Below, one piece after another: positions 36,606 through 55,535 of a stretch of DNA of 64,000 nt (position 1 is the first letter of the stretch; each line of letters starts with the position of its first letter). The notes below the pieces were generated by a model. It worked only from the letters and a program-made list of their open reading frames with translations, did no database searches and was not told where the DNA came from. This DNA comes from Nitrospirota bacterium (lineage in GTDB: Bacteria > Nitrospirota > UBA9217), in assembly GCA_035516155.1 (NCBI GenBank), contig DATJAP010000011.1, forward strand, positions 38,288 to 102,287, read 5' to 3'. The position numbers and the translations under genes are program-made.

Positions 36606-36655
36606 AATCCGCCTCCCGAAAGGTGATACATATAAGGCTAATCAATCGTCATCAT

Positions 36656-37348
36656 TCAGTTCCTGAATAGCGTGATTGCCACTCCTTTGTTGTGTCGGAT
36701 ACAGTTTTTCACCGCATCGACGTTTTTATCGCAGTTCAGCAACGTTTTCCAGGAGTAGAGGTGCCGTGCCTTGTGAAAGTCACTGTTCGCGATGTAGGGG
36801 TATTTTTTCAGGCTGATCACATTGAACACATCGTCCCGGTTGGCAATCTCCCAAGCATCGATGTATTTCGAGTATTTATCTCGGTTGTTCCACAAAAAGA
36901 GCGTGTCGGGGTTTAAGATGTCTGGAGTATGGTGGGGATGACAGGCGATAGTCAGTGCATCCTGGCGCTTTGCGTCAAGAAAAATCTCTTCATAATCCAT
37001 ACACGCGGGGACGAATTCCTTGATGTCGAGAAGCAGGAAATGAGCGGATTCATCCTTGGAGAGGTGGTTCTTGGTGATTTCAACTCCGGGAATCACGAGC
37101 ATTTCATATTTGTCCCACGCCCGTTTCGCTTCGGTCCGTATGGTGGAAAGGTACTCGTCAAAATTGTCTCCCCGGACCGACAAGTTGAAGTGTCGCGCGA
37201 ATTTCCCCAATGTGTTGTCACCATTTACCACATGGTCCGTGATGGCAATTACGTCGAATCCCGCCTGGCCGAAAAGATCTATGGTCTTGCTCATCTCCAC
37301 TGAGCCGTCCGAAAAGGTCGTGTGAATATGAAAGTCACACAGCATCAT
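36656..37348 (-). CDS. PHP-domain metal-dependent phosphoesterase
   Basis: CDFHIHTTFSDGS, IAITDHV, ACHPHH and NSDFH match the PHP histidine/aspartate motifs. Confidence 0.8.
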   Translation of the reverse strand: MMLCDFHIHTTFSDGSVEMSKTIDLFGQAGFDVIAITDHVVNGDNTLGKFARHFNLSVRGDNFDEYLSTIRTEAKRAWDKYEMLVIPGVEITKNHLSKDESAHFLLLDIKEFVPACMDYEEIFLDAKRQDALTIACHPHHTPDILNPDTLFLWNNRDKYSKYIDAWEIANRDDVFNVISLKKYPYIANSDFHKARHLYSWKTLLNCDKNVDAVKNCIRHNKGVAITLFRN

Positions 37349-39220: not shown

Positions 39221-39646
39221 TTATCCATGATTCACCTCTTCAGCTTCGAAGGATTTCTCCGGTGAAAATACCACGGCCAGTGTCCTGATGCAGCCGATCA
39301 CGAGGATCAGGATTGCGAGAGCTAGGATCATCCCTTGTTGCAGGGTGTGTTCGTAGAGCCCAATCATGATTTCGCGGAGTACGAAAACCAGTGCGGCATC
39401 TGTAATAAAGGTTATTTTAAGACGGTGTACGGTAAAATATTCGATGATGCTTCGAAGCAACTCGATGACGACGAACAGGGAAAGAATGTTGGTCACCATC
39501 ATGTCGAAGGCCGCCGCGATGGTGCGGCTCCCGAATACGGCTCGAAGGTCAAGAATGACCCGCGCGATCCCCATTAAAAGAGCGATGATCACGAGCGGGA
39601 TCATAAATTTAATCATGGTGTCGACGATTTTCGTGAAGTATTTCAT
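39221..39646 (-). CDS. psiE: PsiE-family (phosphate-starvation-inducible) membrane protein
   Basis: 141 aa with four TM helices. The central block FVVIELLRSIIEYFTVHRLKITFITDAALVFVLREIMIG parallels E. coli PsiE (FEFIALIVKYF...LRYFVYIGITAIVRLIIV). Confidence 0.55.
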   Translation of the reverse strand: MKYFTKIVDTMIKFMIPLVIIALLMGIARVILDLRAVFGSRTIAAAFDMMVTNILSLFVVIELLRSIIEYFTVHRLKITFITDAALVFVLREIMIGLYEHTLQQGMILALAILILVIGCIRTLAVVFSPEKSFEAEEVNHG

Positions 39647-39730
39647 GGCCCCTTGCCCGACGCGTCATGGTTGGCCGCCCTGGAACTCCGTGCGCTAAAC
39701 CGCTCATGTTAGGACATACTGTCATGATTT

Positions 39731-39759
39731 CATTACACAACCGTTACCAATTTGTTACA
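39731..39759 (+). promoter_or_regulatory. 11-bp-phased direct repeats CATTACA / CGTTACC / TGTTACA
   Basis: The heptamers start at 39731, 39742 and 39753 in the psiE-like/hemerythrin divergent intergenic region. Confidence 0.45.
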
Positions 39760-39839: not shown

Positions 39840-39857
39840 TGTAACATTTCTGTAACA
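39840..39857 (-). promoter_or_regulatory. Tandem TGTTACA-N4-TGTTACA (read on the minus strand), Pho-box-like
   Basis: The plus strand reads TGTAACATTTCTGTAACA. The minus strand reads TGTTACAGAAATGTTACA. It includes the 11-mer GAAATGTTACA that recurs at 43216 and 55564. It lies ~195-210 bp upstream of the psiE-like start. Confidence 0.5.
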
Positions 39858-41513: not shown

Positions 41514-42224
41514 TCATTCCCCCTCGACATAGTATCCCACGCCACGCCGCGTTTTCACAAACAGGGGCCGGGCCGGGTCGTCTTCAATATGTGTCCTCAG
41601 CCTTCTGATATGGACGTCGACCGTCCTGGGTTCAACGAACGTGTCATCCTGCCACAACGCATCGAGCAACTGGTCGCGGCTGAACACCTTCCCTCTGCGT
41701 TCAACGAGATAGAGAAGGAGCCTGAACTCGGTTGAACTCAGGTTCAGCGGAACATTGTTTTTGCTTACGATGTAGCGTTCCTTGTCGATGCGTAGATTGT
41801 GGACGGTGAGGACACTTTCCTGCGTTTTCCTGCCGGCTCCTCTCCGGAGTACGGCATTTACGCGGGCAGTGAGTTCCTTGGGGCTGAACGGCTTCGTCAT
41901 GTAGTCGTCGGCACCTGTTTCGAGGCCCTGTACCCTGTCGGTTACATCGCTTTTGGCCGTCAGCATGATGATCGGCATAGATGCCGTTTTCGGATTGCTT
42001 CGAATTATGCGGCAGAGCTCGGTTCCCTGAAGGCCCGGAAGCATAAGGTCGAGAATGACAAGGCTGTATCCGCCTTTCTTGATCTTATCTAGGGCCTCCT
42101 CGCCATCGGACGCAGAGGAAACTTTGAACCCTTCCCGTGTGAGATTATAGGTGACAAGCTCCACAAGATCGGGTTCATCATCAACAACGAGTATACGTAT
42201 TGTCTGCGCAGCGGCTACGCTCAT
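41514..42224 (-). CDS. OmpR/PhoB-family response regulator (PhoB-like)
   Basis: Receiver: RILVVDDEPDLVELV...LVILDLMLPG...MLTAKSDVTDRVQGLETGADDYMTKPFSPKEL, near-identical to the PhoB signature. Winged helix: STEFRLLLYL...FVEPRTVDVHIRRLR...VKTRRGVGY. Confidence 0.85.
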   Translation of the reverse strand: MSVAAAQTIRILVVDDEPDLVELVTYNLTREGFKVSSASDGEEALDKIKKGGYSLVILDLMLPGLQGTELCRIIRSNPKTASMPIIMLTAKSDVTDRVQGLETGADDYMTKPFSPKELTARVNAVLRRGAGRKTQESVLTVHNLRIDKERYIVSKNNVPLNLSSTEFRLLLYLVERRGKVFSRDQLLDALWQDDTFVEPRTVDVHIRRLRTHIEDDPARPLFVKTRRGVGYYVEGE

Positions 42225-42267: not shown

Positions 42268-42555
42268 TTATTTTGTGGTATCTTCTTTAAGAACCTTCAG
42301 GTATGTCCTGCACCTCGGATACCGGGAACATCGGAAGCGAAGTATTGTTTGCTCATCGCGGTAGAGGTGCATCGGATTCCCGCACGCTGCGCACAACGGC
42401 CTGCCCTTTACCCTCATGCGCTGTGAAACAGTAAATTGCATGCCGCACATCAAGCAGAGATAACGTTGATTGCCTGTCCGCGCTTTCCCATCGCGGTAAA
42501 CTGTTATTGATTGACAGGCCGGACATTGGATATTTTCGATTGTGTCTTTAGACAT
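42268..42555 (-). CDS. Double zinc-ribbon protein (InsA-like N-terminal ribbon + second Cys4 ribbon), paralog of 55197-55535
   Basis: CPAC-x16-C-x2-CG-x-QF, then RPLCAACGNPMHLY...LRFRCSRYPRCRTY. It lies 43 bp upstream of the PhoB-like regulator on the same strand. Confidence 0.6.
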   Translation of the reverse strand: MSKDTIENIQCPACQSITVYRDGKARTGNQRYLCLMCGMQFTVSQRMRVKGRPLCAACGNPMHLYRDEQTILRFRCSRYPRCRTYLKVLKEDTTK

Positions 42556-42674: not shown

Positions 42675-42905
42675 TCATCCGTGCCGCAGTCGTGCCTTAA
42701 CGCTCCGGCTGACAAGGACCGGCAGAAAGGCCCTTATCCTGGCCTCCTTTTTCAAAACATCCAAATCAGCCATATAATATTGTCGAATTTCATCGGCGGG
42801 CAGCTGAAGTTCCTGAGCGAGTTTCTGAATAGCGCGGGAATGCTGATCAACTTCCTTTTCATCACCGCGTAACAAGCCAGACGGTATTGTGGGCTTTTGA
42901 TCCAT
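42675..42905 (-). CDS. DUF3562-like small protein
   Basis: The ATG at 42905 follows an AAGAAGGAG RBS. AIQKLAQELQLPADEIRQYYMADLDVLKKEARIRAFLPVLVSRSVKARL fits the DUF3562 pattern known from sulfate reducers. Paralog at 50200. Confidence 0.55.
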   Translation of the reverse strand: MDQKPTIPSGLLRGDEKEVDQHSRAIQKLAQELQLPADEIRQYYMADLDVLKKEARIRAFLPVLVSRSVKARLRHG

Positions 42906-42974
42906 GGCGATCTCCTTCTTTCTCCGCGTCAGAGGTGGAAAGCGATAACCCCCCCCGGTGTTGCCGAGCATTTT

Positions 42975-43121
42975 CTACCCCCGAAGAATTTTTGCGAGGA
43001 ACAGCGGGCAGCGATCGTAATCTTCCGTACAGCAATAAAGCGCCTTCCGGCGCGTATCGATAGCCACAGTCATAATCGACGCTGAACAGAATATGCTTTC
43101 CGCCTTCCAATAGGGGCACAT
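42975..43121 (-). CDS. Small Cys-rich protein
   Basis: The sequence is MCPYWKAESIFCSASIMTVAIDTRRKALYCCTEDYDRCPLFLAKILRG (6 Cys in 48 aa). It sits immediately upstream of the DUF3562 gene. The RBS is weak and the alternative TTG start at 43205 is not excluded. Confidence 0.3.
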   Translation of the reverse strand: MCPYWKAESIFCSASIMTVAIDTRRKALYCCTEDYDRCPLFLAKILRG

Positions 43122-43150
43122 GAATGCGTGAACGTTTGCCTCTTTTGTAC

Positions 43151-43237
43151 TGTTACAGACTATTGACCGAGATATATACAAGTTCACCTTGCTCTTTCTT
43201 CGCAACTATAACGTGGAAATGTTACAGTAATATTACA
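43151..43237 (+). promoter_or_regulatory. TGTTACA elements: single at 43151, tandem TGTTACA-N4-TATTACA at 43220-43237
   Basis: The region contains ggaaatgttacagtaatattacaaat (GAAATGTTACA at 43216-43226). It lies in the divergent region between the Cys-rich/DUF3562 genes and the DUF5132-ATPase operon. Confidence 0.45.
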
Positions 43238-43586
43238 AATAGCAAAAAAATCTGTGACATGAGGAAACAGTCTGTTTACAGCATGCAAGTGGTGCTGGAA
43301 TACTGCGTAACAATCATGATACAGCGATACTTGCACGCAAAGATGGCACTCTACCGACAGTGCTATTATGACATCCGTGTATTGTATCATGGGATTCTTT
43401 ATTATCCGAATAGCTGCGGCTCCTGGTGTGGGAAATAATTACTTGCGCTCGATGACACTGTCAGTGGATAAAAAGGGTATACTTAATTTATTGTTATATT
43501 ATTGATAGTAGGCAAGTAATGAAAGTGAAAATAGACAGTGCTTCGGGAAAAGGCTACAATTTGTTCATACGAAAGGAGATCATGAT

Positions 43587-43895
43587 ATGGCACTTTTGGA
43601 CGATGGTTTGAAAGGTAATCTGGTCACAGGTCTTGCTATTGGCGTAGGAGCGGCAATATTAGCACCTGTCGTAATACCTTTGTTTGCCAATATTGCGAAA
43701 CCGTTGGCGAAAGCGGCGATCAAAGGAGGGATACAGCTTTATGAGCGCGGTAAGGAAACTTTTGCCGAGGTCGCTGAAATAACCGAGGATATTGTGGCGG
43801 AAGCAAAGGCGGAGCTGTCGGAAGCTGCTGCGGCAGCGGCGGCGCCAGCAGCGGCGGCAGTAGCGGCGCCACCGGACGAGACACACGCGTCATGA
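43587..43895 (+). CDS. DUF5132-like small membrane-anchored protein
   Basis: AAAGGAGATCATGAT RBS. N-terminal hydrophobic GxxxG-type segment GLAIGVGAAILAPVVIPLF, then AKPLAKAAIKGGIQLYERGKETFAEVAEITEDIVAEAKAEL and an Ala/Pro tail. ATGA overlap with the next gene. Confidence 0.6.
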   Translation: MALLDDGLKGNLVTGLAIGVGAAILAPVVIPLFANIAKPLAKAAIKGGIQLYERGKETFAEVAEITEDIVAEAKAELSEAAAAAAAPAAAAVAAPPDETHAS

Positions 43896-44365
43896 TACGG
43901 GATGCAGTGGTATCGCATAACTCGCGGGGAAGGTTCCGGGTAAAAATCGCCTCGTTGAAAGGTGATAGAGAGGCGATTAATGTCTGCAAGGAACAATTTA
44001 TGCGTTGCCCGGGTATCAACACGGTGGAGGTGAACGCGCTGACGGGAAGCATGCTCTTTCTGCACGAGACGAGCATGGCCGCCATTACTGAGTACGCGCG
44101 AACGAAAGATATCTTTATCTTGCGAGAGCAAGGGTCTAACCCGGGGAATTTTCACCAGAATATAACTGAAACGTTCAAAGGAATCGATAACAAAATCAAG
44201 AGCTTGACCGACGGAGAGATGAACATGGGTGGAGTGGCATTCGTCGTTCTACTGGGAGCGGGGGCCATCCAGGTTCTCAGTGGAAACGCTGGCGCGCTTC
44301 CTTGGTACGGTGCATTCTGGTACGCATTCAATATTTTTTTAAAGTCGAAGGAGCCGGAAAAGTAG
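43892..44365 (+). CDS. HMA2-like domain protein with a C-terminal hydrophobic anchor
   Basis: N-terminal GRFRVKIASLKGDREAINVCKEQFMRCPGINTVEVNALTGSMLFLHE (HMA2-like, no CxxC). C-terminal MGGVAFVVLLGAGAIQVLSGNAGALPWYGAFWYAFNIF. Confidence 0.65.
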   Translation: MIRDAVVSHNSRGRFRVKIASLKGDREAINVCKEQFMRCPGINTVEVNALTGSMLFLHETSMAAITEYARTKDIFILREQGSNPGNFHQNITETFKGIDNKIKSLTDGEMNMGGVAFVVLLGAGAIQVLSGNAGALPWYGAFWYAFNIFLKSKEPEK

Positions 44366-44640
44366 CAGGGGTAGGCTGGCTGGACTTATTGAGAACCTGA
44401 ACACTGGTGGGGTTTTTCATCCAATCCCGACGAAACACACTTATCAAACTTATCTCATTTCCCAGGAAAGCCTTCAGAGATATTTAGGATGCCATGATCG
44501 AAGTCCCTCCATCTTCTTCGGATCGAGCCAGGAGAAAAGCCATGAATGATAGGAGGCAAAAACCACAAAGGAAGGCGGCTGTGAAGCGTCGGCCGCGCAG
44601 TCAATCATCAAAAGGCGACCAAACAACAGGAGGTGTAGCA

Positions 44641-45252
44641 ATGTCAAGTGCAGAGACCATAGAGAATCCAGCATCAAAAGAGGAAATCGGTAAAGCAGGG
44701 ACTACGGTTAAGGAAGGTGTCGTAAGTAGTCTCAAGGGCATTAATGAGATTGAGGCGGAAATCGTTAGCCTGGTGCGGAACACTGTATCCAACACGCTTC
44801 GTGCAACAGGCAGTGTTGCCGGTGAGGCGGTTGTTATCACAAAGGATGTGGTCAAGGGGGCCATTCAGGCAACGGAGGAGGTTGGCACCGGCCTGATCCT
44901 GAGCACCAAGAGTGTCGCGAAAGGCGTTGTCATGGGCGTGAGCGACGTGGGCGGTGATGTGATCGCGGTTGCGGGCTCCACCGTTAAGGGCGCCGTTAAA
45001 GGGGCGGCTGAAGTCGGCGCGGATGTGGCGATGGTGGCTCGACGGGCCGTGGACGGCGTGATTGAAGCCACGAAGGAAGTCGGTGGGAATGCAGAAGAAG
45101 TGGCGAAGGTAGCCGTAACGGGAGCGATTGAGGCTGCATCGACGATCGGCAACACGGCGGTCAAGGCAGTCAAGGACATGTTGGTCGGCGTTGTCGAAGG
45201 GGTAAAGGAAGTTGCGAGCACTGCCCTTCCAAAATCCAGGCCTGCCGCGTAG
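44641..45252 (+). CDS. Tandem 22-residue-repeat (11-mer x2) Gly/Ala/Val/Lys/Glu-rich protein
   Basis: The ATG at 44641 follows AGGAGGTGTAGCA. Gly of the KG dipeptide recurs at ORF residues 122, 144, 166, 188, 210 and 232, and the VG dipeptide at 130, 152, 174, 196 and 218. Upstream in-frame starts at 44494 and 44542 would add a highly basic leader. Confidence 0.6.
   Translation: MSSAETIENPASKEEIGKAGTTVKEGVVSSLKGINEIEAEIVSLVRNTVSNTLRATGSVAGEAVVITKDVVKGAIQATEEVGTGLILSTKSVAKGVVMGVSDVGGDVIAVAGSTVKGAVKGAAEVGADVAMVARRAVDGVIEATKEVGGNAEEVAKVAVTGAIEAASTIGNTAVKAVKDMLVGVVEGVKEVASTALPKSRPAA
44773..45219 (+). repeat. Coding tandem repeat, 66-bp period, six clean plus one or two degenerate units
   Basis: The period is derived from the 22-aa periodicity of xxKxVxKGAIxAxxEVGxxxxx units in the translated ORF. 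Confidence 0.7.
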
Positions 45253-45303
45253 AAATCGGGGCGCACACCAGATCGGTTTTCGTGTCCGAAAGGGGGGCGA
45301 CGC

Positions 45304-48300
45304 GTGATCCAGACCGTTCATGCCGCGGTTAAAGGGCGTGTCCGTTATAAAGTTGATGGGCTCTATCGTTCGGAATCATTGAAACAGCATATTGAGCAAG
45401 GTCTCGTTCAGCACGAAGGGATCCTAAACGTTTCCGTCAACACGCTGACGGGCTCGGTTCTCATATTGTACGATATACGGAACGGCAATGGCAATGATGC
45501 AGTTGCCGTGGCCGGACTCCTCAAAGAGATCGTCGAAAGTCACCCAGCGGGCTCCTCAGCCGGCGGGGTGGAGAGAGAGAAGAGGAGACCTCGCGCCGTC
45601 GCTGCTTCGCCCATCACGCGGAGCGATGATCCCGGGTTTGCCCGCGGTAGTACGCCTCCGGTGCATCCGCAAGCAGGAGGAAAAAATCCGAGCCTGCGAA
45701 AAGTTAGGTCGCAAGTCGTCCATGCTGAGGAACAGCCTGAAGATCTCTGGCACTGCATGACGAGGCAGGAAGTTCTGCATCAGTGGGATGCCTCCGGCTC
45801 AACAGGCCTGTCTTTGGAATCCGCTTTGAGACGTGCAGCTCAATACGGTCCAAACCTCTTGCCGGAATCGGTTCCCCGATCCGGGTGGAGCATCTTCTTC
45901 GACCAGTTCAAATCCCTTCCCGTTGGCCTTCTCGGAATAGCCGCAGGCATATCAGTCTTCACGGGTGGCATTGCCGATGCTGTCGTGATCCTCGGCGTCG
46001 TGATGATTAATGCTGCCATCGGATATACGACCGAAAGGCAGACGGAAAAAACCATTCACGGTCTTAAGAGCCTCGTCCAGCCGGTGTCAACGGTCATTCG
46101 CGGCAATGCGCTGCAGGATATCGACGCCAAAGACATCGTGCCGGGCGACCTGCTCGTTCTCAGGCCCGGCAGCTATGTTGCCGCCGACGCCCGGCTTCTG
46201 GATTTGAATTATCTCAGCGTTGATGAATCAGCGCTGACTGGCGAGAGCATGCCGGTCAATAAGACAAAAGGGAAGCTGCAGTCGCCCGATATCCCGCTTG
46301 GCGACCGGACGAACATGGTGTATATGGGCACCCTTGTCACCGGAGGTCAGGGCCTTGCCGTTGTTGTGGCGACAGGCCGCTATACGGAGATGGGGAAGAT
46401 CCAGACTCTTGTGGGAACAGCGCGTCCTCCCGACACCCCCATGGAACGGCAGATGGACAGAATGGGCATTCAACTGGTCATCATCAGCAGTGCGGTATGC
46501 GGCATCGTGTTCATCATAGGGCTGCTGCGCGGCTATGGTTTTCTCCAGATGCTTAAAACCTCCATTGCACTGGCTGTTGCCGCGGTGCCCGAGGGTCTGC
46601 CGACCATAGCCACAACAACGCTGGCACTCGGCATCAGGCGCATGCGGGAATTAAATGTTCTTATTCGTCACCTTGACGCCGTGGAGGCTCTCGGTGCCGT
46701 TCAGACCATCTGTCTTGATAAAACCGGGACCATTACCATGAATCGCATGTCGGTCGTCGAGGTTCATGCCGGCCTGCGCCGTTTTACGGTATTCGACGGC
46801 AGGATTTCCGCCGATGGTACCACCATTAATCCCTATTCCAACGACGAAATCCTCCGCCTTGTCCATCTGTCGGTCCTCTGCAATGAATCAACGGTATCGA
46901 GACAGGAAGGCGAATATTCGGTTCAGGGCTCCTCGACGGAAAATGCCCTGGTTCATATGGCGCTCGCGGTCGGCGTCGACGTTAATGCGCTCCGGTCTCA
47001 GTATTCGCTGGTCAAAATCAACCACCGTTCCGAAGACCGTCATTACATGAGCACCATTCACCGTGCTGGTGAGGGACAGGGGTTGCTGGCTCTGAAGGGA
47101 AGCCCTTCCGAAGTGCTATCGATGTGTCAATGGTATCTCAAGGACGGTGAGAGGCTTTTACTTGATGACCATGCGCGGGAATTACTGGACAAGGAAAATG
47201 AACGGATGGCCGGTGATGCGCTCCGCGTGCTCGCGGTCTGCTATGCCCTGGCCGACGAGAAGGCGCTGAACAACGGCGATGGCTTCGAAGAAGGGCTCAC
47301 CTGGGTCGGGCTGGTAGGCATGGCTGATGTCGTTCGCGCCGGTGTAAAGAACCTCATGGGGACCTTTCATCGCGCGGGGATTGATACGGTCATGATTACC
47401 GGCGACCAGGGACCGACGGCCTATGCCATAGGAAAGGAACTCAACCTCAGCAAGGACGAAGAGCTGGAAATCCTGGACTCGAGCCATCTTTCTCAGCTGG
47501 ATCCTGAAGTCATGACGGCTCTCGCGGGACGGGTCAATGTCTTCGCACGGGTGAGCCCGGCAAACAAACTCCAGATCGTGCAGGCGCTCCAGTCGGCCGG
47601 TAAGGTCGTGGCCATGACCGGAGACGGCATCAATGATGGACCGGCACTCAAAGCGGCCGATATCGGCATTGCCATGGGCCACACGGGCACCGATGTGGCG
47701 AGAGAGGTGGCAGATGTCGTACTGGAGGACGATAATCTTGAAACCATGGTGATCGCCATCAGTCAGGGCCGGACGGTTTACAACAATATCAGAAAGTCAG
47801 TCCGGTTCCTTCTTGCGACGAACATGAGCGAGATCATGGTGATGTTTACCGCGATGGCGGGAGGAATGGGACAGCCGCTAAATGTCATGCAGCTTCTCTG
47901 GATCAACCTGATTTCGGATATCTTCCCCGGACTGGCGCTGGCCCTTGAGCCGCCAGAGCCCGATATCCTGTCCCGGCCTCCGCGCAATCCGAATGAACCA
48001 ATCATCAAACCCGGGGACTTCAAACGGATCCTTTTCGAGTCATCCACCATTTCCGCCGGGTCCTTGGCGGCTTATGGTTATGGCCTCGCACGATATGGTC
48101 AGGGGGCCGAGGCGGGAAGCATGGCATTCATGAGCCTCTGTACGGGTCAGCTTTTGCACGCGATCAGCTGCCGTTCCGAAACGCACAGCATCTTCGATTC
48201 CGACCGGCTAGCAACGAACAAGTATCTTACCGTGGCCCTCGCGGGTTCCCTCAGTATCCAGACCGCAACCATGTTCGTCCCGGGCCTGCGGCGGTTCCTC

Positions 48301-48480
48301 GGTTTAAGCCCGCTGGGGCCAGTGGACGCCTTAATAGCCATAGGGAGCGCAGTCGTGCCGCTTCTCATTAACGAAGCAACAAAGACACGCGCCATTACCG
48401 TTCCACAGCAGACGAAACAGGGCGATTCCCCAGTCGCAGCCGGGGAGCCGGAAAACATTCGTTTAGACGCGGTTATGTGA
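45304..48480 (+). CDS. P2-type (SERCA/PMCA-like) cation-transporting P-type ATPase with an N-terminal HMA2-like domain
   Basis: - GTG start after AAAGGGGGG.
- N-terminal KGRVRYKVDGLYRS...GILNVSVNTLTGSVLILYD.
- Core motifs LTGESMPV, ICLDKTGTITMN, TGDGINDGPALKAADIGIAMG and TM4 AVPEGLPT (P2-type rather than the CPC/SPC of P1B). Confidence 0.9.
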   Translation: MIQTVHAAVKGRVRYKVDGLYRSESLKQHIEQGLVQHEGILNVSVNTLTGSVLILYDIRNGNGNDAVAVAGLLKEIVESHPAGSSAGGVEREKRRPRAVAASPITRSDDPGFARGSTPPVHPQAGGKNPSLRKVRSQVVHAEEQPEDLWHCMTRQEVLHQWDASGSTGLSLESALRRAAQYGPNLLPESVPRSGWSIFFDQFKSLPVGLLGIAAGISVFTGGIADAVVILGVVMINAAIGYTTERQTEKTIHGLKSLVQPVSTVIRGNALQDIDAKDIVPGDLLVLRPGSYVAADARLLDLNYLSVDESALTGESMPVNKTKGKLQSPDIPLGDRTNMVYMGTLVTGGQGLAVVVATGRYTEMGKIQTLVGTARPPDTPMERQMDRMGIQLVIISSAVCGIVFIIGLLRGYGFLQMLKTSIALAVAAVPEGLPTIATTTLALGIRRMRELNVLIRHLDAVEALGAVQTICLDKTGTITMNRMSVVEVHAGLRRFTVFDGRISADGTTINPYSNDEILRLVHLSVLCNESTVSRQEGEYSVQGSSTENALVHMALAVGVDVNALRSQYSLVKINHRSEDRHYMSTIHRAGEGQGLLALKGSPSEVLSMCQWYLKDGERLLLDDHARELLDKENERMAGDALRVLAVCYALADEKALNNGDGFEEGLTWVGLVGMADVVRAGVKNLMGTFHRAGIDTVMITGDQGPTAYAIGKELNLSKDEELEILDSSHLSQLDPEVMTALAGRVNVFARVSPANKLQIVQALQSAGKVVAMTGDGINDGPALKAADIGIAMGHTGTDVAREVADVVLEDDNLETMVIAISQGRTVYNNIRKSVRFLLATNMSEIMVMFTAMAGGMGQPLNVMQLLWINLISDIFPGLALALEPPEPDILSRPPRNPNEPIIKPGDFKRILFESSTISAGSLAAYGYGLARYGQGAEAGSMAFMSLCTGQLLHAISCRSETHSIFDSDRLATNKYLTVALAGSLSIQTATMFVPGLRRFLGLSPLGPVDALIAIGSAVVPLLINEATKTRAITVPQQTKQGDSPVAAGEPENIRLDAVM

Positions 48481-48644: not shown

Positions 48645-49844
48645 ATGAAAAAAGATTTCATGTTTACCTCGGAATCGGTGACGGAAGGCCATCCTGACAA
48701 GCTGTGCGACGTCATCAGCGATGCCATCGTGGACCATTTCCTTCAGCAGGATCCGTTTGCGAATATTATTGCCGAATGCGCGGTTGCAACGGCCATTGTG
48801 TTTATCGCGGCGCGATTTTCCTCGCCGGTCAGAGCCGACTTCGCGAACATCGCCCGCCAGGTCATCAATATGGTCGGCTATGATCAAAAGGCGTTCAATT
48901 CCAAGACCTGCAGCATTATAACGAGTCTCAAGGAGTTTCCCGACGGAGTTCGGAGAGGTATCGATGAACTAACGATGACGGAGGACGAGCTCGAACGGGT
49001 CAGTGTGCGGAACCAGGTCACAGTCTTCGGATTTGCCTGCAATCAGACGTCGGCGTTCATGCCTCTCCCCATATGGCTCGCGCACCGGCTTGCCCGAAAG
49101 CTGACGTCCGTAAGGCTCCAGAAGATTCTGCCCTATCTCGCGCCCGATGGAAAAACGCAGGTGGGCGTGGAATACCGGAACGGCAGTCCCTCCCGCATTC
49201 ACAGCATAACGGTCATTGCAAGCCAGGAACGTTCTCCGGAAAAAGGCGGACCAAACGGGGGAAAACTTACTGATGATATCAGGGAGGCGGTAATCAATAC
49301 GGTTTTCCAGGACGAGGTGGTGAAGCCGGACGACAAAACGCGGATTTTCGTCAATCCGGAAGGCCCCTTCATCCAGGGCGGCCCCTCGGTGCATTCGGGG
49401 CTCACGGGAAGGAAAAACGCGATTGACACCTATGGAGAATATTCGCGCCACAGCGGGTCGGCGCTGACCGGCAAAGACCCTTCGCGGATCGACCGGATCG
49501 GGGCTTATGCCGCCCGCTATGCGGCGAAAAATGTGGTTGCGGCGGGACTGGCCACGTCCTGTGAAGTTCAGCTCAGCTACTCAATCGGTTTTTCGCGTCC
49601 CGTGAGCGTCCAGGTGGAAACCTTCGGGACCGGCGTAATATCCGATGAAAAGATAGCCGACCTGGTGGAGAAACATTTCGATTTCCGTCTGGCGGGGATC
49701 ATCCGACAGTTCAATCTGCGATACCTGCCATCGCAGGTCAAGGGGGGGTTCTATCGCAAACTCGCGGCCTACGGTCAGGTAGGAAGAATGGACATCGGCC
49801 TCCCTTGGGAGCTAACGGACAAGGCCGCTCTCCTGAAGAAATGA
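48645..49844 (+). CDS. metK: S-adenosylmethionine synthetase
   Basis: FTSESVTEGHPDKLCDVISDAIVD, GLTGRKNAIDTYG and TGKDPSRIDRIGAYAARY are MetK signatures. It is somewhat divergent from the enterobacterial sequence. Confidence 0.9.
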   Translation: MKKDFMFTSESVTEGHPDKLCDVISDAIVDHFLQQDPFANIIAECAVATAIVFIAARFSSPVRADFANIARQVINMVGYDQKAFNSKTCSIITSLKEFPDGVRRGIDELTMTEDELERVSVRNQVTVFGFACNQTSAFMPLPIWLAHRLARKLTSVRLQKILPYLAPDGKTQVGVEYRNGSPSRIHSITVIASQERSPEKGGPNGGKLTDDIREAVINTVFQDEVVKPDDKTRIFVNPEGPFIQGGPSVHSGLTGRKNAIDTYGEYSRHSGSALTGKDPSRIDRIGAYAARYAAKNVVAAGLATSCEVQLSYSIGFSRPVSVQVETFGTGVISDEKIADLVEKHFDFRLAGIIRQFNLRYLPSQVKGGFYRKLAAYGQVGRMDIGLPWELTDKAALLKK

Positions 49845-50199
49845 TACCGGCCAGGCGAGGCGCGGATGTATGGTTGAGATGTCCTGTTGATTGAGACGTG
49901 CTATGATATAAATAGGGAGCATCAAAGACATGATAATTTGGAGCTTATCGCCGGAAAAGATTTTTCTGGTAGCAAGGGCAAGAGAAACGGATCAGGGGGT
50001 TAGAGGGAAACCTTAAGGATGATAAAATCTCTATTGCAAGGAATAGTCGGTTTTTGTGACGTATAGAGCGAAGGGTACATAGAAAAAGGGCACGAGGCGC
50101 GTTCAGGCCTCTGGTTCCGATAGTCAGTCGGAACAAGTCGCAGTGAGAGGGAGCGAGTCGCTGACGAACGGCCCCAGATGGTGGAGGAGGGAACACAGC

Positions 50200-50457
50200 A
50201 TGGACAAGAAGATGGTTTTCAATCACACTGTGGAACGTAATCATCAGGTTGCCATTGAGAATCTCGCTAAGAGCCTCAATCATTCTCCGGAACGCATCAA
50301 TACGCTGTATGCGATGGTCCTCAGGCACTACCTGAAAACGGCGCGGATCAAACATTTTGTCTCGGCACTCGTCACCAAACGAGTCAAGGAGTTGATAAAG
50401 GATACTAGGCTGCCTTCTGATATAGAAGGCAGGAGAAGCCATTCCCGTGAATTTTAA
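50200..50457 (+). CDS. DUF3562-like small protein (paralog of 42675-42905)
   Basis: The ATG at 50200 follows GGAGGAGGG. VAIENLAKSLNHSPERINTLYAMVLRHYLKTARIKHFVSALVTKRVKELI parallels the 42905 protein. Confidence 0.5.
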   Translation: MDKKMVFNHTVERNHQVAIENLAKSLNHSPERINTLYAMVLRHYLKTARIKHFVSALVTKRVKELIKDTRLPSDIEGRRSHSREF

Positions 50458-51130: not shown

Positions 51131-53770
51131 ATGATGCCTCCCTTTGTTTCTAAAAAAAATGCGGCGAAACCCATTGAGATGACTCAGAGTGAGCAGGATC
51201 TTCTCGCTATATGCGCTCTCACTCCAGAGGCGGCTCTTGCAACGGTCGGCGTATCAGAGAGGGGATTGGATCCCGATCAGGTGCGCGACCGGCGGACACG
51301 CTTCGGTTGGAACGCGACCGCAAATCACAAAAAAACGGGTTTTCTTTATGAAATCTATCAGCGCTGCAAAAACCCCCTTGTTATTCAGCTTCTGGTCATT
51401 GCAGCGATCTCCTTCGCTATGGGTGATCTTCGCGCGACGGTTATGGTCGCTGCCATGGCCCTCCTGAGTGTGGGGCTCGGTTACTATCAGGAATCACGGG
51501 CGGACCGTGCGGTGGAAAAGCTTCAAGCCATGGTGCGCACAACCTGTGTCGCGATGCGCGAGGGAAAAGAAACAGAGCTTCTCATGGACCAATTGGTTCC
51601 CGGTGACATCGTCATCCTCGCGGCAGGAGACATGATCCCAGCCGATTTGCGCCTTCTCAGCACCAAGGATTTTTTCGTAAGCCAGTCCGTGCTTACAGGG
51701 GAGTCGATGCCGGTCGAAAAAATGGCTGCCGCAGCAGCCACGTCCACTCAGAACGGTTTGGAATTAGCAAATGCCTGCTTTCAGGGGAGCAACGTCCTGA
51801 GCGGGTCGGCGCGTGGGCTTGTGGTTAACACCGGCAACAGAACTTACTTCGGCTCAATTTCAAAGAATCTTTCTTCACTGCGCGTCCTGACCAATTTTGA
51901 CAAAGGAATCAATGCCTTCACCTGGCTGATGATCCGTTTCATGATCGTCATGGTGGCGGTGGTTTTCCTCATTATCGGCATCACAAAGCACAACTGGCTG
52001 GAGGCGCTGCTGTTCGGCCTTGCCGTGGCCGTCGGACTTACCCCGGAGATGCTCCCGATGATTGTGACGGTCAATCTATCGAAGGGAGCGCTCGCGATGT
52101 CGCGGAAGAAAGTAATCGTCAAGAGACTCAACGCCATTCAGAACTTCGGCGCTATGGACGTATTCTGCACGGACAAGACCGGCACGCTTACTCAGGACCG
52201 CGTCGTACTCGAAAAGTATGTTGATGTAACAAACCGCCAAAGCGATGACGTGCTTCGCTATGCGTACCTGAACAGCTACTACCAGACGGGTCTGCGTAAC
52301 CTGCTAGACCGGGCCATCCTGGAACACGGCGAACTTGATGTCGAGCGCACCTGCCGGAAGGTGGACGAAATTCCTTTTGATTTTTCGCGGAAGCGGATGT
52401 CGGTGATCATCGATTATGAAGGCGCTCACGTGCTCATCTGCAAGGGAGCGGTGGAGGAAATGTTCGTTGTCTGCGACCACTACCAGGTTGATGAGGAAAT
52501 CCATCCTCTCATCGAAATGCTTAAAAAAGATCTCATGGAAGAGTACCGGGCTCTGAGCGCAGACGGCTACCGGGTCCTGGCAATCGCATACCGAGAGTAT
52601 CCCCAGACCCAACAGGTCTTTTCCGCGGTGAATGAATCCGGCTTGATACTTTTAGGATATGTAGCTTTTTTCGATCCGCCGAAGGATTCCGCCCTCAAGG
52701 CGCTGGCGGAATTGCGCCGTGTGGGAGTATCCACCAAGATTCTCACCGGCGACAATGAACTCGTGACACGGAAAGTGTGCCGTGATGTCGGCTTGGAGAT
52801 TGAGGGAATTGTAACCGGTCCGCAGCTCATCGGCCTCAGCGACGACGAGCTGACGGAGCTGGCGGAAAAATCCACGGTGTTTGCCCGTTTATCACCGCTT
52901 CAGAAAGAGCAGCTGATTCGCGCCATGCATCGGGGTGGTCATGTTGTCGGATTTCTGGGAGACGGCATCAATGATGCACCGGCAATGAGAGCCGCCGATG
53001 TGGGTATTTCCGTCGACACCGCAGTCGATGTGGCTAAGGAATCGGCGGACATCATCCTCCTGGAAAAAGACCTTTCCGTTTTGGAGCAGGGGACCCTCGA
53101 GGGTCGCAAAGTATTCGGCAACATTATCAAATATATTAAAATGGGCGCAAGCTCCAATTTCGGCAATATGTTCAGCGTTGTCGGAGCCAGCCTTTTCCTG
53201 CCTTTTATTCCCATGGCGCCGATTCAGGTATTGGTCAACAACCTTCTTTATGATCTTTCCCAGTCCGGCATCCCAACGGACAAGGTGGATGACGAATTTC
53301 TGGAAAAACCCCGCCGCTGGAACATTAACAGCATCAAAAAGTTCATGCTGTATATCGGTCCCACAAGCTCGGTGTTCGACTACACGACGTATGCCCTGAT
53401 GCTTTTTGTTTTTCACTGCGCGCGTTACTCCCTCCCGGGGGTGTCGGATAATTCCAAAGTCTATTATGAGAGTCTTTTCCACACAGGGTGGTTTGTCGAA
53501 TCAATATTGACCCAGACGCTCATCGTGCACGTTATTCGGACCAATCGGATACCATTTATCCAGAGCAGGGCCAGCGCCGCCCTGACGCTGACCACGCTCA
53601 CCGTCATGGCCGCGGGAATCATCCTGCCCTATTCGCCGCTGGCGGATTATCTTGGCTTCGTAAGACTCCCCGCCGCGTACTGGCTGTGGATCGTAATGAC
53701 CCTCACGGCCTACGTGTCATTGACGCACTACGTCAAAACTTGGTTTGTTCGCAAATTTGGAGGCGATTAG
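51131..53770 (+). CDS. mgtA: Magnesium-translocating P-type ATPase
   Basis: YYQESRADRAVEKLQAMV, LTGESMPVEK, FCTDKTGTLTQDRV, TM4 LTPEMLPMIVTV and GDGINDAPAMRAADVGISV. The length (879 aa) and motifs are typical of MgtA/MgtB. Confidence 0.9.
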   Translation: MMPPFVSKKNAAKPIEMTQSEQDLLAICALTPEAALATVGVSERGLDPDQVRDRRTRFGWNATANHKKTGFLYEIYQRCKNPLVIQLLVIAAISFAMGDLRATVMVAAMALLSVGLGYYQESRADRAVEKLQAMVRTTCVAMREGKETELLMDQLVPGDIVILAAGDMIPADLRLLSTKDFFVSQSVLTGESMPVEKMAAAAATSTQNGLELANACFQGSNVLSGSARGLVVNTGNRTYFGSISKNLSSLRVLTNFDKGINAFTWLMIRFMIVMVAVVFLIIGITKHNWLEALLFGLAVAVGLTPEMLPMIVTVNLSKGALAMSRKKVIVKRLNAIQNFGAMDVFCTDKTGTLTQDRVVLEKYVDVTNRQSDDVLRYAYLNSYYQTGLRNLLDRAILEHGELDVERTCRKVDEIPFDFSRKRMSVIIDYEGAHVLICKGAVEEMFVVCDHYQVDEEIHPLIEMLKKDLMEEYRALSADGYRVLAIAYREYPQTQQVFSAVNESGLILLGYVAFFDPPKDSALKALAELRRVGVSTKILTGDNELVTRKVCRDVGLEIEGIVTGPQLIGLSDDELTELAEKSTVFARLSPLQKEQLIRAMHRGGHVVGFLGDGINDAPAMRAADVGISVDTAVDVAKESADIILLEKDLSVLEQGTLEGRKVFGNIIKYIKMGASSNFGNMFSVVGASLFLPFIPMAPIQVLVNNLLYDLSQSGIPTDKVDDEFLEKPRRWNINSIKKFMLYIGPTSSVFDYTTYALMLFVFHCARYSLPGVSDNSKVYYESLFHTGWFVESILTQTLIVHVIRTNRIPFIQSRASAALTLTTLTVMAAGIILPYSPLADYLGFVRLPAAYWLWIVMTLTAYVSLTHYVKTWFVRKFGGD

Positions 53771-53772
53771 GC

Positions 53773-54543
53773 ATGAAAAGTCTTTTGACCGCGCTCAAGG
53801 ACGGTCGGCTTGTGGAACTTCCCGACAGTGACAAAGAACAATCATTGCGATACCTTGCGCATCTTATCGAGGGCATCCCGGAACTGGGTGGGCATCTTCA
53901 GGTTGATGAAGACGTGCTGGTTCGCGAGCGCGAGGGAAACACCGGGATCGGCCTGGGGGTGGCCTGCCCCCATACGCGCGGCACTGGTGCGGGAGAATTA
54001 TGGTGCGCGGTGGGTTGGAGCCCTGCAGGGATCGATTACGGTTCTTCTGACAATCAAAAAGTTCATCTTGTGGTTATGTATTATGTCCCCGATTCAGAAA
54101 AAGCGGCTTATCTCAAGGAAGTCTCCGCGCTTGTATCAGCCATTAAAAAAGAAGAAGGCATCCAGGCGATTTCGGGTGCAGAGGATATCGCCGATGTGCG
54201 TAATCGCCTACTGGATTGGGTATCGACGGCGATTGAGGCGGGGATGCCGGAAGCCCGCGCGCGAATGGTGCGTCTGGAAGCACGGCAGGCGGCCGCCGGT
54301 TTTGCGCCCCCGGGTCTTCAGATCATTCCCGTACTCATTGTGAGCCAGCCGGGTCAACCGCCGATTGTGCTCTCGCCAAATTCGGATTTGTCCTCGGCTC
54401 TGGAAAATGACGTCGACATTTCGCCTCTCCTGAAACGACAATCATCATTCGAGAGACTGGGATATTGGTTTGTATACCGGTCCACGATGATATACGATCC
54501 TCAGCGTCCGCTCTACGATTACCTCGCTGTGAAGGTTGGATGA
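53773..54543 (+). CDS. PTS EIIA type-2 (PtsN-like) domain protein with a C-terminal extension
   Basis: The ATG at 53773 lies 3 nt after the mgtA stop. LRYLAHLIEGIPELGG...REREGNTGIGLGVACPHTRG...VHLVVMYYVP resembles PTS_EIIA_2 (His in the GVACPH context). The track ORF start at 53488 overlaps mgtA in another frame and was rejected. Confidence 0.5.
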   Translation: MKSLLTALKDGRLVELPDSDKEQSLRYLAHLIEGIPELGGHLQVDEDVLVREREGNTGIGLGVACPHTRGTGAGELWCAVGWSPAGIDYGSSDNQKVHLVVMYYVPDSEKAAYLKEVSALVSAIKKEEGIQAISGAEDIADVRNRLLDWVSTAIEAGMPEARARMVRLEARQAAAGFAPPGLQIIPVLIVSQPGQPPIVLSPNSDLSSALENDVDISPLLKRQSSFERLGYWFVYRSTMIYDPQRPLYDYLAVKVG

Positions 54544-55216: not shown

Positions 55217-55535
55217 GATGTGAAACCTCCTTCTTGTAAGGAATTTTTTCATAGGTTTTGCATACCGGATAATCCGAGCATCTGAATCGCAACCCTTGTT
55301 TATCATGCATATACAAGTGCATTTTCAGGCCGCACTGCGGACAGGTAGGACGATTTTCCAATTCATTTCGTGCAAAGCCGAGAACGAACTGCCTTCCACA
55401 AAGCACACATTTCAGGCGCTGCTTGCCGGTTTTGACATGGCCATACTTATATACAGCCTCAGAGCGGCACACGGGACATCTAAATTCACCTGTAGCCCTC
55501 ATCCTTGCACACCTTTCTTTGTACGTTATAATCAT
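55197..55535 (-). CDS. Double zinc-ribbon protein (paralog of 42268-42555)
   Basis: CPVC-x16-C-x2-CG-x-QF, then RPTCPQCGLKMHLY...LRFRCSDYPVCKTY. The real start may be Met12 (55502), matching the paralog's N-terminal length. Confidence 0.6.
   Translation of the reverse strand: MIITYKERCARMRATGEFRCPVCRSEAVYKYGHVKTGKQRLKCVLCGRQFVLGFARNELENRPTCPQCGLKMHLYMHDKQGLRFRCSDYPVCKTYEKIPYKKEVSHRELLCS

Follow-up and report, generated by a model that had tools for sequence, protein, structure and literature searches.

A gene module in the window (the whole 64,000-nucleotide stretch of DNA analyzed here) encodes a P-type ATPase of the Ca2+ pump class together with a set of small partner proteins, and we tentatively read this locus as a multiprotein cation-pump platform that is assembled by the small proteins and acts in the response to phosphate stress. 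It is established which genes the module contains, that this content is conserved in several phyla, and which domain signatures the proteins carry; also established are the conserved residues at the Ca2+-ligand positions of SERCA and the recurrent embedding of the module among Pho genes and tandem boxes. Five genes make up the conserved unit:

43587-43895, + strand: DUF5132 small membrane protein, 102 aa
43892-44365, + strand: CoBaHMA (Pfam HMA_2) protein that ends in a membrane helical hairpin, 157 aa
44641-45252, + strand: soluble 22-residue-repeat protein, 203 aa, about eight repeats
45304-48480, + strand: P2A-type (SPCA1/LMCA1/SERCA-like) P-type ATPase, 1058 aa
48645-49844, + strand: MetK (SAM synthetase) paralog, which travels with the pump

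The sequence-only reading had described a four-gene module at 43587-48480. Its four genes do all lie on the + strand, but the extent was drawn too narrowly, as the conserved unit includes the MetK-like gene. The check that it suggested, on conservation of the neighborhood, came out clearly positive: at the 32 non-cyanobacterial pump loci, DUF5132 is present in 31, the CoBaHMA-hairpin protein in 30, and the repeat protein in 21. The order DUF5132, CoBaHMA-hairpin protein, (repeat protein), CoBaHMA-ATPase, MetK-like protein is kept across Nitrospirota, Desulfobacterota, Acidobacteriota, and Binatia, adjacent genes frequently overlap by 4 nt, and independent gene calls with Pfam annotation returned the identical order. 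Cyanobacterial copies mostly consist of the pump and the MetK paralog without the small partners, which are therefore not obligatory. This last observation is counted against the platform, and it is also what could be said for a purely positional adjacency, in which an ordinary housekeeping Ca2+ exporter happens to lie beside functionally unrelated neighbors. Such an explanation is very improbable: at least four phyla keep the gene order, start and stop codons overlap, two of the partners are found fused, a CoBaHMA domain is common to the pump and a partner, and the identities of pump pairs correlate with those of the MetK paralog (r = 0.86).

The pump opens with a CoBaHMA domain (residues 1-74; Pfam HMA_2 at residues 4-59, E = 2e-10) bearing the signature H6 and G11-R-x-R-x-K16, which is followed by a variable Pro-, Gly-, Ser-, and Ala-rich linker some 75 residues long and then by a complete P2-type ATPase. 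Both the N-terminal HMA2-like domain of the 1058-aa protein and its placement in the P2 class, not among the P1B heavy-metal pumps, had been noticed earlier and hold up; the class can now be given as P2A and not P1B-6, with PEGLP at residue 429 and with D[YF]SCA and HNxxT, the motifs of P1B-6 pumps, both missing. The nearest solved structures are those of SPCA1, LMCA1, and SERCA, which align over the full length (E = 1e-150 to 1e-125) and share with the pump both the catalytic motifs and the TM4, TM5, and TM6 residues of the Ca2+ sites. At the SERCA Ca2+-site positions, the pump family keeps the PEGLP Glu, N768, E771, N796, and D800, whereas T799 is replaced by Ser and E908 by Gln. None of the three relatives has an N-terminal CoBaHMA domain and linker, and their regulators, phospholamban and sarcolipin, are unrelated single-TM peptides. 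The CoBaHMA domain is found in all pumps of 50-93% identity and is absent from distant ones.

[quoted passage not shown] The DUF5132 protein (Pfam E = 1e-13) has a single N-terminal hydrophobic segment (KD19 maximum of 2.39 at residue 12) with a conserved GLAIGxG (GxxxG) motif in its TM helix, then an acidic helix that is Glu/Ala-rich and conserved (residues 50-80 carry a net charge of -6), and finally a tail of variable Ala/Pro sequence. No metal-binding motif was found in the C-terminal tails compared, and Pfam gave no match to DUF1490; the lack of a PacL1-type metal motif and of this match is counted against the pump platform. The CoBaHMA-hairpin protein matches HMA_2 over the whole profile (E = 6e-14), with the conserved signature H9, R14-x-R16-x-K18, and T51-G-S53, and the basic signature of a His followed by R-x-R-x-K is conserved in both this protein and the pump. 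It has no CxxC, and its two Cys are not conserved. The AF2 model shows a b0-b1-a1-b2-b3-a2-b4 fold at pLDDT > 90, whose top Foldseek matches are HMA domains, followed by helices at 112-129 and 136-153 in a hydrophobic C-terminal segment with the motif GN..WYxAFWYA. Two cyanobacterial loci have DUF5132 fused directly to a WYxxAWYAF hairpin, which is counted in favor of the platform.

The remaining two partners are less readily placed, and the fact that the platform accounts for neither of them is counted against it. The ORF of the repeat protein spans 44494-45252, and its start is placed at 44641 because AGGAGG lies 7 nt upstream. Its earlier description as a soluble protein of 22-residue amphipathic repeats agrees with the periodicity (z = 10.7), a hydrophobic moment peaking at 98.2 degrees, and hydropathy, by which it has no TM segment. 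It is rich in V, A, G, K, and E, lacks aromatic residues, Cys, and His, and matched no Pfam family. The MetK paralog, which the sequence-only reading had not included, is the most conserved pump partner: it lies 3′ of the pump gene at 44 of 48 loci, a count that takes in cyanobacteria, and several loci have its start codon overlapping the stop codon of the pump. Its substrate-site residues are altered family-wide: in every pump-linked copy GAGDQG has become V[RK][ND]Q[VA]T and GGPxGDxG has become GGPxxHSG.

The surroundings of the module in the window include these genes and sites:

29459-29881, - strand: HMA_2 singleton
39221-39646, - strand: psiE (phosphate-starvation-inducible protein E family)
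41514-42224, - strand: OmpR/PhoB-family response regulator
42268-42555, - strand: double zinc-ribbon protein, 95 aa, paralog of 55197-55535
42675-42971, - strand: DUF3562 protein, with a second copy at 50143-50457 (+)
43220-43237, + strand: tandem box TGTTACAgtaaTATTACA, 11-bp spacing, Pho-box-like
43532-43560, + strand: predicted sigma-70-like promoter TAGACA-17-TACAAT, 27 nt upstream of the DUF5132 start codon
54845-55535, - strand: zinc-ribbon gene (55197-55535), then CoBaHMA singleton gene (54845-55306), with tandem box TGTTACAattgTGTTACA in front at 55568-55585

Phosphate-starvation genes recur around the module, a setting that the sequence-only reading had not brought out. A divergent pstSCAB-phoU cluster adjoins the module in four loci (L008, L012, L064, and L065), phoH occurs in L065 and phnC in L005, and the window has psiE and the PhoB-like regulator, which scores best against PhoB in NCBIfam, with 264 bits where the cutoff is 296. 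Regulators of the OmpR/PhoB family recur near the module in L003, L004, L007, L028, and L031. In the window, the heptamer TGTTACA is found 13 times where 4 copies would be expected, and none of 100 shuffles gave as many. Tandem TGTTACA boxes with 11-bp spacing number 18 against 0.14 expected; these precede pstS, psiE (39840-39857, with GTAATGAAA at 39728-39736), DUF5132, and the zinc-ribbon/CoBaHMA pairs, the pair and its TGTTACAattgTGTTACA box recurring together in other loci. The two HMA2 singletons that had been noted in the window are both present, at 29459-29881(-) and 54845-55306(-). The TGTTACA repeats reported upstream of the module are likewise there, a single copy at 43151 and the pair of TGTTACA at 43220 and TATTACA 11 bp on at 43231, but in most loci no such box lies directly before the module, L021 and L023 being the only cases before DUF5132. 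In the window, some 300 bp separate TGTTACAgtaaTATTACA from the predicted DUF5132 promoter downstream of it. The box lies in a divergent region, between DUF3562, the zinc-ribbon gene, and the PhoB-like regulator to one side and the module to the other, and may serve the regulator operon instead of the module; this point, like the small number of boxes directly before DUF5132, is counted against the platform. A conserved GTAATGAAA motif (43516-43524) abuts the -35 hexamer of that promoter.

The ferrosome architecture invoked in the sequence-only reading, a P1B-6 ATPase with small GxxxG and HMA-like membrane proteins, agrees with the published Fez descriptions. In the Fez clusters, known from Desulfovibrio magneticus, Shewanella, Rhodopseudomonas, and C. 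difficile, the N-terminus of FezB carries an RxR/RxRxR motif; FezC begins with an HMA domain, has two TM helices, and bears this motif too; and FezA starts with a hydrophobic GxxxG region. In described architecture, FezB corresponds to the pump, FezC to the CoBaHMA-hairpin protein, and FezA to the DUF5132 protein, one for one, and both systems occur mainly in anaerobes and group their genes in a single operon. The ferrosome pump is P1B-6, whereas the pump here is P2A with PEGLP and Ca-type sites; the neighbors are iron genes there and phosphate genes here, and the module has two extra conserved partners in the repeat protein and the MetK paralog. That in ferrosomes the same architecture builds an organelle is counted against the platform. 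In a less probable alternative, a sharpened form of the cation store suggested in the sequence-only reading, the GxxxG, CoBaHMA-hairpin, and repeat proteins would shape or coat an intracellular membrane compartment that the pump would load with Ca2+, which would precipitate with phosphate, polyphosphate, or carbonate as a calcium counterpart of the iron-phosphate ferrosome. The storage of ferrosome iron as a phosphate mineral fits the position of the module in phosphate islands, and the 3-11 amphipathic periodicity of the repeat protein is typical of lipid-surface binders, but its AF2 model is a compact soluble alpha-helical repeat fold (pTM 0.72), not an extended lipid-binding helix. Magnetotactic Nitrospirota also have the module (L032, L034, and L035), and intracellular Ca carbonates for which no genetic basis is known have been reported from magnetotactic bacteria of this phylum. 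The repeat protein, however, is missing from exactly the magnetotactic, Magnetominusculus-like group. A further parallel is the ccyA neighborhood of Microcystis aeruginosa PCC 7806, a set of candidate genes for intracellular amorphous CaCO3 that brings together, in adjacent positions, two DUF5132 genes, an HMA_2-matching CoBaHMA-hairpin gene, a CoBaHMA singleton, and the gene of a Ca2+ transporter. Several of these surround and are coexpressed with ccyA and cax, which are markers of intracellular carbonate; this too is counted against the platform. That transporter is a CAX Ca2+/H+ exchanger and not a P-type pump, the neighborhood is cyanobacterial with no Pho-regulon link described, and its defining gene encodes calcyanin with its (GlyZip)3 domain, whereas no calcyanin-like glycine-zipper ORF was found in the window. 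The module is also widespread in lineages for which no inclusion reports were found in the literature, and mycobacteria run the same architecture at the plasma membrane. In Mycobacterium tuberculosis, the gene for PacL1, which consists of a TM helix, cytoplasmic Glu/Ala repeats, and a disordered tail, directly precedes that of the P-type ATPase CtpC, a pump listed among those with an R-rich N-terminal motif, and like PacL1 the DUF5132 protein joins a TM helix, a Glu/Ala-rich helix, and a tail. PacL1 binds the CtpC N-terminus through its Glu/Ala region and stabilizes CtpC in plasma-membrane foci. It differs in its C-terminal metal-binding motif, CtpC is a P1B pump for Zn/Mn, and CoBaHMA-hairpin, repeat, and MetK partners are not described there. 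In architecture, the published accounts support an analogy with the ferrosome and one with the PacL1/CtpC plasma-membrane "effluxosome" equally.

A pump substrate other than Ca2+ (Mn2+, Mg2+, or another), or a role in lipid remodeling during phosphate starvation, is unlikely. The pump scores below the equivalog cutoffs for PMR1-, SERCA-, and PMCA-type Ca pumps, and SPCA1, its top structural relative, transports Mn2+ as well; a TerC/YjbE metal-transporter gene lies 3′ of the MetK paralog in Magnetominusculus-like loci, and genes for MgtA, CorA, or MgtE occur close by in L054, L065, and the window. These transporter neighbors vary between loci, and the residues at SERCA Ca2+-site positions are conserved family-wide. 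In the lipid variant, the CoBaHMA domains would sense the loss of anionic phospholipids and the highly conserved, altered MetK paralog would supply an adenosyl donor, which would suit the GT21 glycosyltransferase and PHP genes beside the module in the window and L064, but no mechanistic link leads from a P2A pump to lipid synthesis.

For the favored pump platform, which we would place in the cytoplasmic membrane, the P2A ATPase is proposed to export Ca2+, or a divalent cation like it, from the cytosol through the membrane. [quoted passage not shown] The module occurs in many anaerobic bacteria, mostly amid phosphate-starvation genes, and the effect of such docking would be a pump that is stabilized, clustered, or gated in the membrane.

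A Ca2+-type candidate pump carrying an N-terminal CoBaHMA domain (Pfam HMA_2, PF19991) lies in a module of five genes on the + strand, and this neighborhood recurs with its pump in other genomes. The sequence-only reading had described four co-oriented genes ending with the pump, and these open reading frames exist as it described them. The extent that it gave is too small, as it omitted the downstream gene for a MetK-like protein. The module consists of the following genes:

43587-43895, + strand: DUF5132 protein (Pfam E = 1e-13)
43892-44365, + strand: CoBaHMA-hairpin protein, with a full-length Pfam HMA_2 match (E = 6e-14)
44641 (start, behind AGGAGG), + strand: repeat protein with about eight 22-residue repeats
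45304-48480, + strand: P2-type ATPase (the pump), containing PEGLP and beginning with an HMA_2 domain (Pfam E = 2e-10)
48645-49844, + strand: MetK-like gene downstream of the pump, with all three S-AdoMet_synt Pfam domains

The pump is of the P2 type and not P1B, as first proposed from its PEGLP motif. Its motifs (TGES at 312, PEGLP at 429 in TM4, DKTGT at 472, and GDGIND at 773) are those of a P2A ATPase, its Pfam domains are Cation_ATPase_N, E1-E2_ATPase, and Cation_ATPase_C, and among solved structures human SPCA1, Listeria LMCA1, and SERCA come closest to it. In the alignment with SERCA1, N768, E771, N796, and D800 are kept along with the PEGLP Glu (E309), and T799 is replaced by Ser. The residues at the SERCA Ca2+-site positions (E, N, E, N, S, D, Q) are conserved in 47 family members, and the Gln among them is presumably the counterpart of SERCA E908, a position assigned through the SPCA1 alignment and SERCA TM8. 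These residues support a Ca2+-type divalent-cation pump, an assignment short of proof because the protein scores under the curated Ca-pump cut-offs (those of the NCBIfam equivalogs; 625 versus 798 for the PMR1 type). All pumps that are 50-93% identical carry the N-terminal CoBaHMA domain, and one of them carries two in tandem (1545-5057 in L022; L-numbers denote related pump loci in other genomes). Scored with an HMM built from domain segments only, the domain is absent from 36-39%-identical pumps and from the second pump of the window. Among the 120 best-matching clusters of a large protein database, about 113 have the CoBaHMA-pump fusion.

The two small membrane partners are encoded by genes that overlap by ATGA. 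The DUF5132 protein has a single hydrophobic segment by hydropathy, located at the N-terminus, where the pattern KGN..GLAIGxGxA..P..P is kept in 38 homologues; beyond it, these have a helix rich in Glu and Ala (AE..E..ED..AEAKAE) and then an Ala/Pro tail that varies. The AF2 model of the CoBaHMA-hairpin protein (E3-11, E14-18, H26-37, E42-48, E53-58, H62-71, E75-77; pLDDT > 90) has the order b0-b1-a1-b2-b3-a2-b4 and then two C-terminal helices. Its domain has HMA domains as the nearest solved folds in Foldseek and is predicted to adopt the ferredoxin-like HMA fold, extended at the N-terminus by strand b0 and lacking CxxC; no conserved Cys was found among the homologues of the protein. In published descriptions, this additional strand and a patch of conserved basic residues characterize the CoBaHMA domain (HMA_2), and the patch is proposed to bind anionic partners. 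The b0 His and the b1/b2 basic residues are present in both pump and hairpin partner, each conserved in 80% or more of the homologues (H6, R12, R14, and K/R16 in the pump; H9, R14, R16, and K/R18 in the partner). The partner additionally conserves T51-G-S53 and a C-terminal GN..WYxAFWYA.

The third protein is soluble with 22-residue repeats, in agreement with the initial description: its periodicity reaches z = 10.7 at lag 22 and z = 8.7 at lag 44, its hydrophobic moment peaks sharply at 98.2 degrees, and it has neither a TM segment nor a match to a Pfam family. A start at 44494 was rejected in favor of 44641 with its upstream AGGAGG. AF2 predicts an all-helical protein of one long helix followed by six of 17-25 residues (pLDDT 84, pTM 0.72). 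In the fold search, the sole similar structures were helical repeat proteins designed de novo, which gave no lead to function; besides a helical-repeat fold, a helix lying on a lipid surface would be compatible with the 3-11 periodicity. A profile search of 1.84 billion representatives found 974 relatives at E <= 1e-3, 92 of which reach 1e-30. In some relatives (P0121, P0139, P0141, P0194, P0197, P0198), the repeats are joined to a MucR-type, CsbD, or response-regulator receiver domain, although part of these fusions may be gene-calling artefacts.

A pump search over one genome per species gave 57 loci. The nearest relative, 93% identical, is in a Nitrospirota MAG, and the pumps of 50-93% identity come from Nitrospirota (including the magnetotactic Candidatus Magnetominusculus), Desulfobacterota, one Acidobacteriota MAG, one Binatia MAG, and several heterocystous or filamentous cyanobacteria. 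Nostoc minutum NIES-26, Calothrix sp. NIES-3974 (L040), and Chlorogloeopsis sp. ULAP02 are carriers available in culture. Partners were counted by clustering all open reading frames of the loci, using only loci with sufficient flanking DNA.

Partners of the pump in related loci (non-cyanobacterial; cyanobacterial)
DUF5132: 31/32; 2/8, as a fusion
CoBaHMA-hairpin protein: 30/32; 0/8
Repeat protein: 21/32, with 0/7 in the Magnetominusculus-like group; 0/8
MetK-like gene downstream of the pump: 36/38; 8/10

Conservation of the neighborhood across genomes, on which the module idea had been made to depend, is thus borne out, with DUF5132 in all but one of the non-cyanobacterial loci counted. Two further contigs have the same gene order by independent gene calls and Pfam labels. 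In two cyanobacterial loci, DUF5132 is fused straight to a WYxxAWYAF hairpin, with the CoBaHMA domain missing; by the Rosetta-stone argument, this suggests that the two small proteins act jointly in the membrane. A plasmid search with the CoBaHMA-hairpin protein gave no match, and one with the pump gave only 34-40%-identical relatives, including a Microvirga plasmid pump that has DUF5132, CoBaHMA, and DUF445 neighbors and lacks the MetK paralogue. Additional genes recur more locally. A TerC/YjbE metal-transporter gene follows the MetK-like gene in Magnetominusculus-like loci (L031, L032, L035, L036, L037, L047), and a DUF445 membrane-protein gene is found in Desulfobacterota loci, in the Acidobacteriota locus L015, and in the Microvirga plasmid locus (L015, L018, L019, L025, L045, L060). 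The two cyanobacterial loci without the MetK-like gene encode, close to the pump, YflT-domain proteins that have long glycine zippers (L013 3237-4016 and L029 10585-11892, both on the - strand) and by analogy recall the glycine-zipper proteins reported near ccyA.

The MetK-like gene is the most constant partner of the pump, present in about 44 related loci, cyanobacteria included, and in several of them its start overlaps the pump stop. The protein scores 363 bits, above the 309-bit TIGR01034 equivalog cut-off, and across phyla the copies share 55-95% identity, against about 43% with E. coli MetK. The canonical motifs GAGDQG and GGPxGDxGLTGRK (E. coli Asp118 and Asp238) are absent from all pump-linked copies. 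Every one of these has V[RK][ND]Q[VA]T in place of the former and GGPxxHSGLTGRK in place of the latter, exchanging Asp238 (E. coli numbering) for His, and eight copies have GKGP for GKDP and lose that Asp too. Pairwise identities of the MetK-like proteins follow those of the pumps (r = 0.86).

The setting of the module in the window includes these features:

1-27200, + strand: exopolysaccharide/exosortase cluster (Wzy, Wzz, EpsH/EpsI, several glycosyltransferases)
29459-29881, - strand: HMA_2 singleton after this cluster
35367-37348, - strand: GT21 glycosyltransferase and PHP-domain genes
39728-39736, - strand: GTAATGAAA motif
39840-39857: tandem box (two TGTTACA-like heptamers at 11-bp spacing) before psiE
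41514-42224: OmpR/PhoB-type regulator, scoring best as PhoB, under the cut-off
42268-42555, - strand: second zinc-ribbon paralogue, adjoining DUF3562 upstream of the module
42675-42971, - strand: DUF3562 gene
42975-43205, - strand: uncalled Cys-rich open reading frame of 76 aa in the divergent promoter region, overlapping the TGTTACA copy at 43151-43157
43220-43237: tandem box
43516-43524, + strand: GTAATGAAA motif
43532-43560: predicted sigma-70-like promoter, TAGACA-17-TACAAT
50143-50457, + strand: DUF3562 gene, on the other flank of the module
51131-53770, + strand: MgtA-type Mg2+ P-type ATPase (1123 bits)
53773-54543, + strand: PTS EIIA-2 domain protein, after the MgtA-type ATPase
54845-55306, - strand: CoBaHMA singleton
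55197-55535, - strand: double zinc-ribbon protein of about 100 aa, paired with this singleton
55568-55585: tandem box

Phosphate genes surround the module here and elsewhere. In addition to psiE in the window, pstSCAB lies divergently beside the module in L008, L012, L064, and L065, accompanied by phoU where checked (L012, L064, L065), with phoH in L065 and phnC in L005. The cyanobacterial flanks are heterogeneous, with no Pho genes among those annotated. GT21 and PHP-domain genes are also near the module in L064 (17587-19105), a 62%-identity locus, and may be part of glycolipid remodelling under phosphate starvation. The MgtA-type neighbor, together with CorA (L065) and MgtE (L054) near the module elsewhere, hints at a link of Mg homeostasis with phosphate homeostasis; the exopolysaccharide/exosortase cluster appears unconnected with the module. 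Both additional HMA_2 singletons that had been noticed in the window are present, and the pair of zinc-ribbon protein and CoBaHMA singleton (about 123-135 aa) recurs in about 20 loci. The DUF3562 family recurs in 11 loci. Conservation of the 76-aa Cys-rich open reading frame is limited to L003 and L004, the loci nearest to that of the window, and it may not be a gene.

The TGTTACA repeats reported upstream of the module exist. For the tandem box TGT[AT]ACA-N4-T[GA]T[AT]ACA, 0.14 occurrences are expected in the 953 kb of loci and 18 were counted, and two additional contigs have further copies. The boxes stand before pstS in L008 and probably L014, directly before DUF5132 in L021 and L023 (four phased copies each), in the divergent region between regulator operon and module in the window, L003, L004, and L007, and before zinc-ribbon/CoBaHMA-singleton operons in the window (55568), L004, L007, L009, L027, L044, L064, and L065. 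They are read as Pho-box-like because the 11-bp direct-repeat layout is that used by OmpR/PhoB-family regulators, and they are probably the mark of a PhoB-like regulator's regulon. As a conserved operator of the module, TGTTACA was rejected, since in most loci the boxes are not directly upstream of DUF5132, and for this reason they are retained solely as a regulon mark. In the window, about 300 bp separate the box from the predicted promoter, and it is therefore no proof of direct control of the module there. A second conserved element, GTAATGAAA, lies immediately next to the -35 hexamer in loci of Nitrospirota and Desulfobacterota, some of which have it twice; the window has just one more exact copy, upstream of psiE, and GGAATGAAA (48541), between pump and MetK-like gene, is a one-mismatch copy. 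A riboswitch had also been considered for the conserved motif upstream of DUF5132, which is now read as a DNA site adjoining the -35 hexamer. The leader-RNA reading was rejected, with an untranslated leader of only about 20 nt left by the predicted promoter and no Rfam support: no family matched at gathering thresholds across the window, and a lenient scan of 42900-45400 gave one weak match at chance level (E = 3.5). Terminator hits were not above those in shuffled sequence.

No published description of the module was found in the literature searched. Similar adaptors are known around other pumps. In ferrosomes, FezB is a P1B-6 ATPase (D[YF]SCA, HNxxT) with an N-terminal RxR/RxRxR motif that also occurs in CtpC, FezC combines this motif and an HMA domain at its N-terminus with two TM helices, and FezA has an N-terminal hydrophobic GxxxG region. 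Compared by description, and in architecture only, the pump GRVRYK resembles the FezB motif, the hairpin protein with GRFRVK and its C-terminal hairpin resembles FezC, and the DUF5132 GLAIGxG resembles the FezA GxxxG. The ferrosome analogy drawn earlier thus holds for the R-rich motif on pump and hairpin partner and for the GxxxG small protein. It does not extend to the pump class, as had been said then; neither D[Y/F]SCA nor HNxxT is present in the pump. In L042, the module has beside it a P1B ATPase that contains a CPC motif and whose N-terminus Pfam confirms as HMA_2 (14015-16213, - strand). In M. tuberculosis, PacL1, encoded upstream of CtpC, consists of a TM helix, Glu/Ala repeats that bind the CtpC N-terminus, and a disordered tail, and it stabilizes the pump in plasma-membrane foci. 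DUF5132 likewise combines a TM helix with a Glu/Ala helix and an upstream position; it gave no match to DUF1490 at E <= 0.1, and the His/Asp/Cys-rich C-terminal motif of the PacL type is absent from the 38 homologues. In Microcystis, ccyA and cax, which encodes a Ca2+/H+ exchanger, have as neighbors one gene for a CoBaHMA-hairpin protein, one CoBaHMA singleton, and two DUF5132 genes, and several of the genes around ccyA are co-expressed with it. No open reading frame of the 64-kb window has even two chained GxxxGxxxGxxxG, as calcyanin would require. By analogy, a CoBaHMA-type logic appears common to the Microcystis ccyA neighborhood, ferrosomes, and PacL1/CtpC, and the module would bring a third class of pump to these adaptors, which are also found beside a calcium-carbonate marker.

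Given ferrosomes and PacL1/CtpC, this architecture is known in two forms, an organelle and a plasma-membrane platform. We lean, tentatively, toward a platform for the module. The basic faces of both CoBaHMA domains would dock onto the acidic Glu/Ala helix of DUF5132, onto anionic lipids, or onto both, and this docking would cluster or gate the Ca2+-type pump under phosphate stress; the PacL1-like layout of the membrane-anchored DUF5132 is consistent with this, and the missing DUF1490 match and PacL-type motif count against it. The serious rival is an organelle, a Ca counterpart of the iron-phosphate ferrosome, which we regard as possible and less probable than the platform, the sequence being compatible with both. 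Here the Ca2+-type pump and its FezA-like, FezC-like, and coat-like partners would build and load a membrane-bounded store under phosphate control, a proposal that has the shared small-protein architecture in its favor. The store would hold Ca-phosphate, polyphosphate, or carbonate in anaerobic Nitrospirota and Desulfobacterota. Weaker than either is a different pump substrate or a link to lipid remodelling, which we judge improbable: the sub-threshold Ca-pump scores and the GT21/PHP genes point that way, and the conserved Ca2+-site residues point to Ca2+. Mere adjacency of the genes, for which the lack of the small partners in most cyanobacterial loci might speak, is very hard to credit beside the partner counts and the correlated identities of pump and MetK-like protein. 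The original observation is confirmed and extended, and its interpretation is partly supported.

Ferrosomes, mycobacterial effluxosomes, and the calcyanin neighborhood are connected through the CoBaHMA domain, with its basic face, and a small membrane protein that has an acidic helix, which suggests that a shared adaptor set is a general bacterial way of organizing P-type pumps in membranes. Also of interest are the translational coupling, in several loci, of an ion pump with a SAM-synthetase paralogue whose substrate-site residues are changed, and the embedding of the whole gene set in phosphate-starvation islands. If the organelle reading is true, the CoBaHMA/DUF5132 toolkit would be machinery common to ferrosomes, cyanobacterial carbonate inclusions, and this module. 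Genes for intracellular calcium carbonate or calcium-polyphosphate inclusions are known only in ccyA-carrying lineages, and the module is a concrete candidate locus for mineral inclusions, including those of the inclusion-forming magnetotactic Nitrospirota, which have been without any candidate so far.
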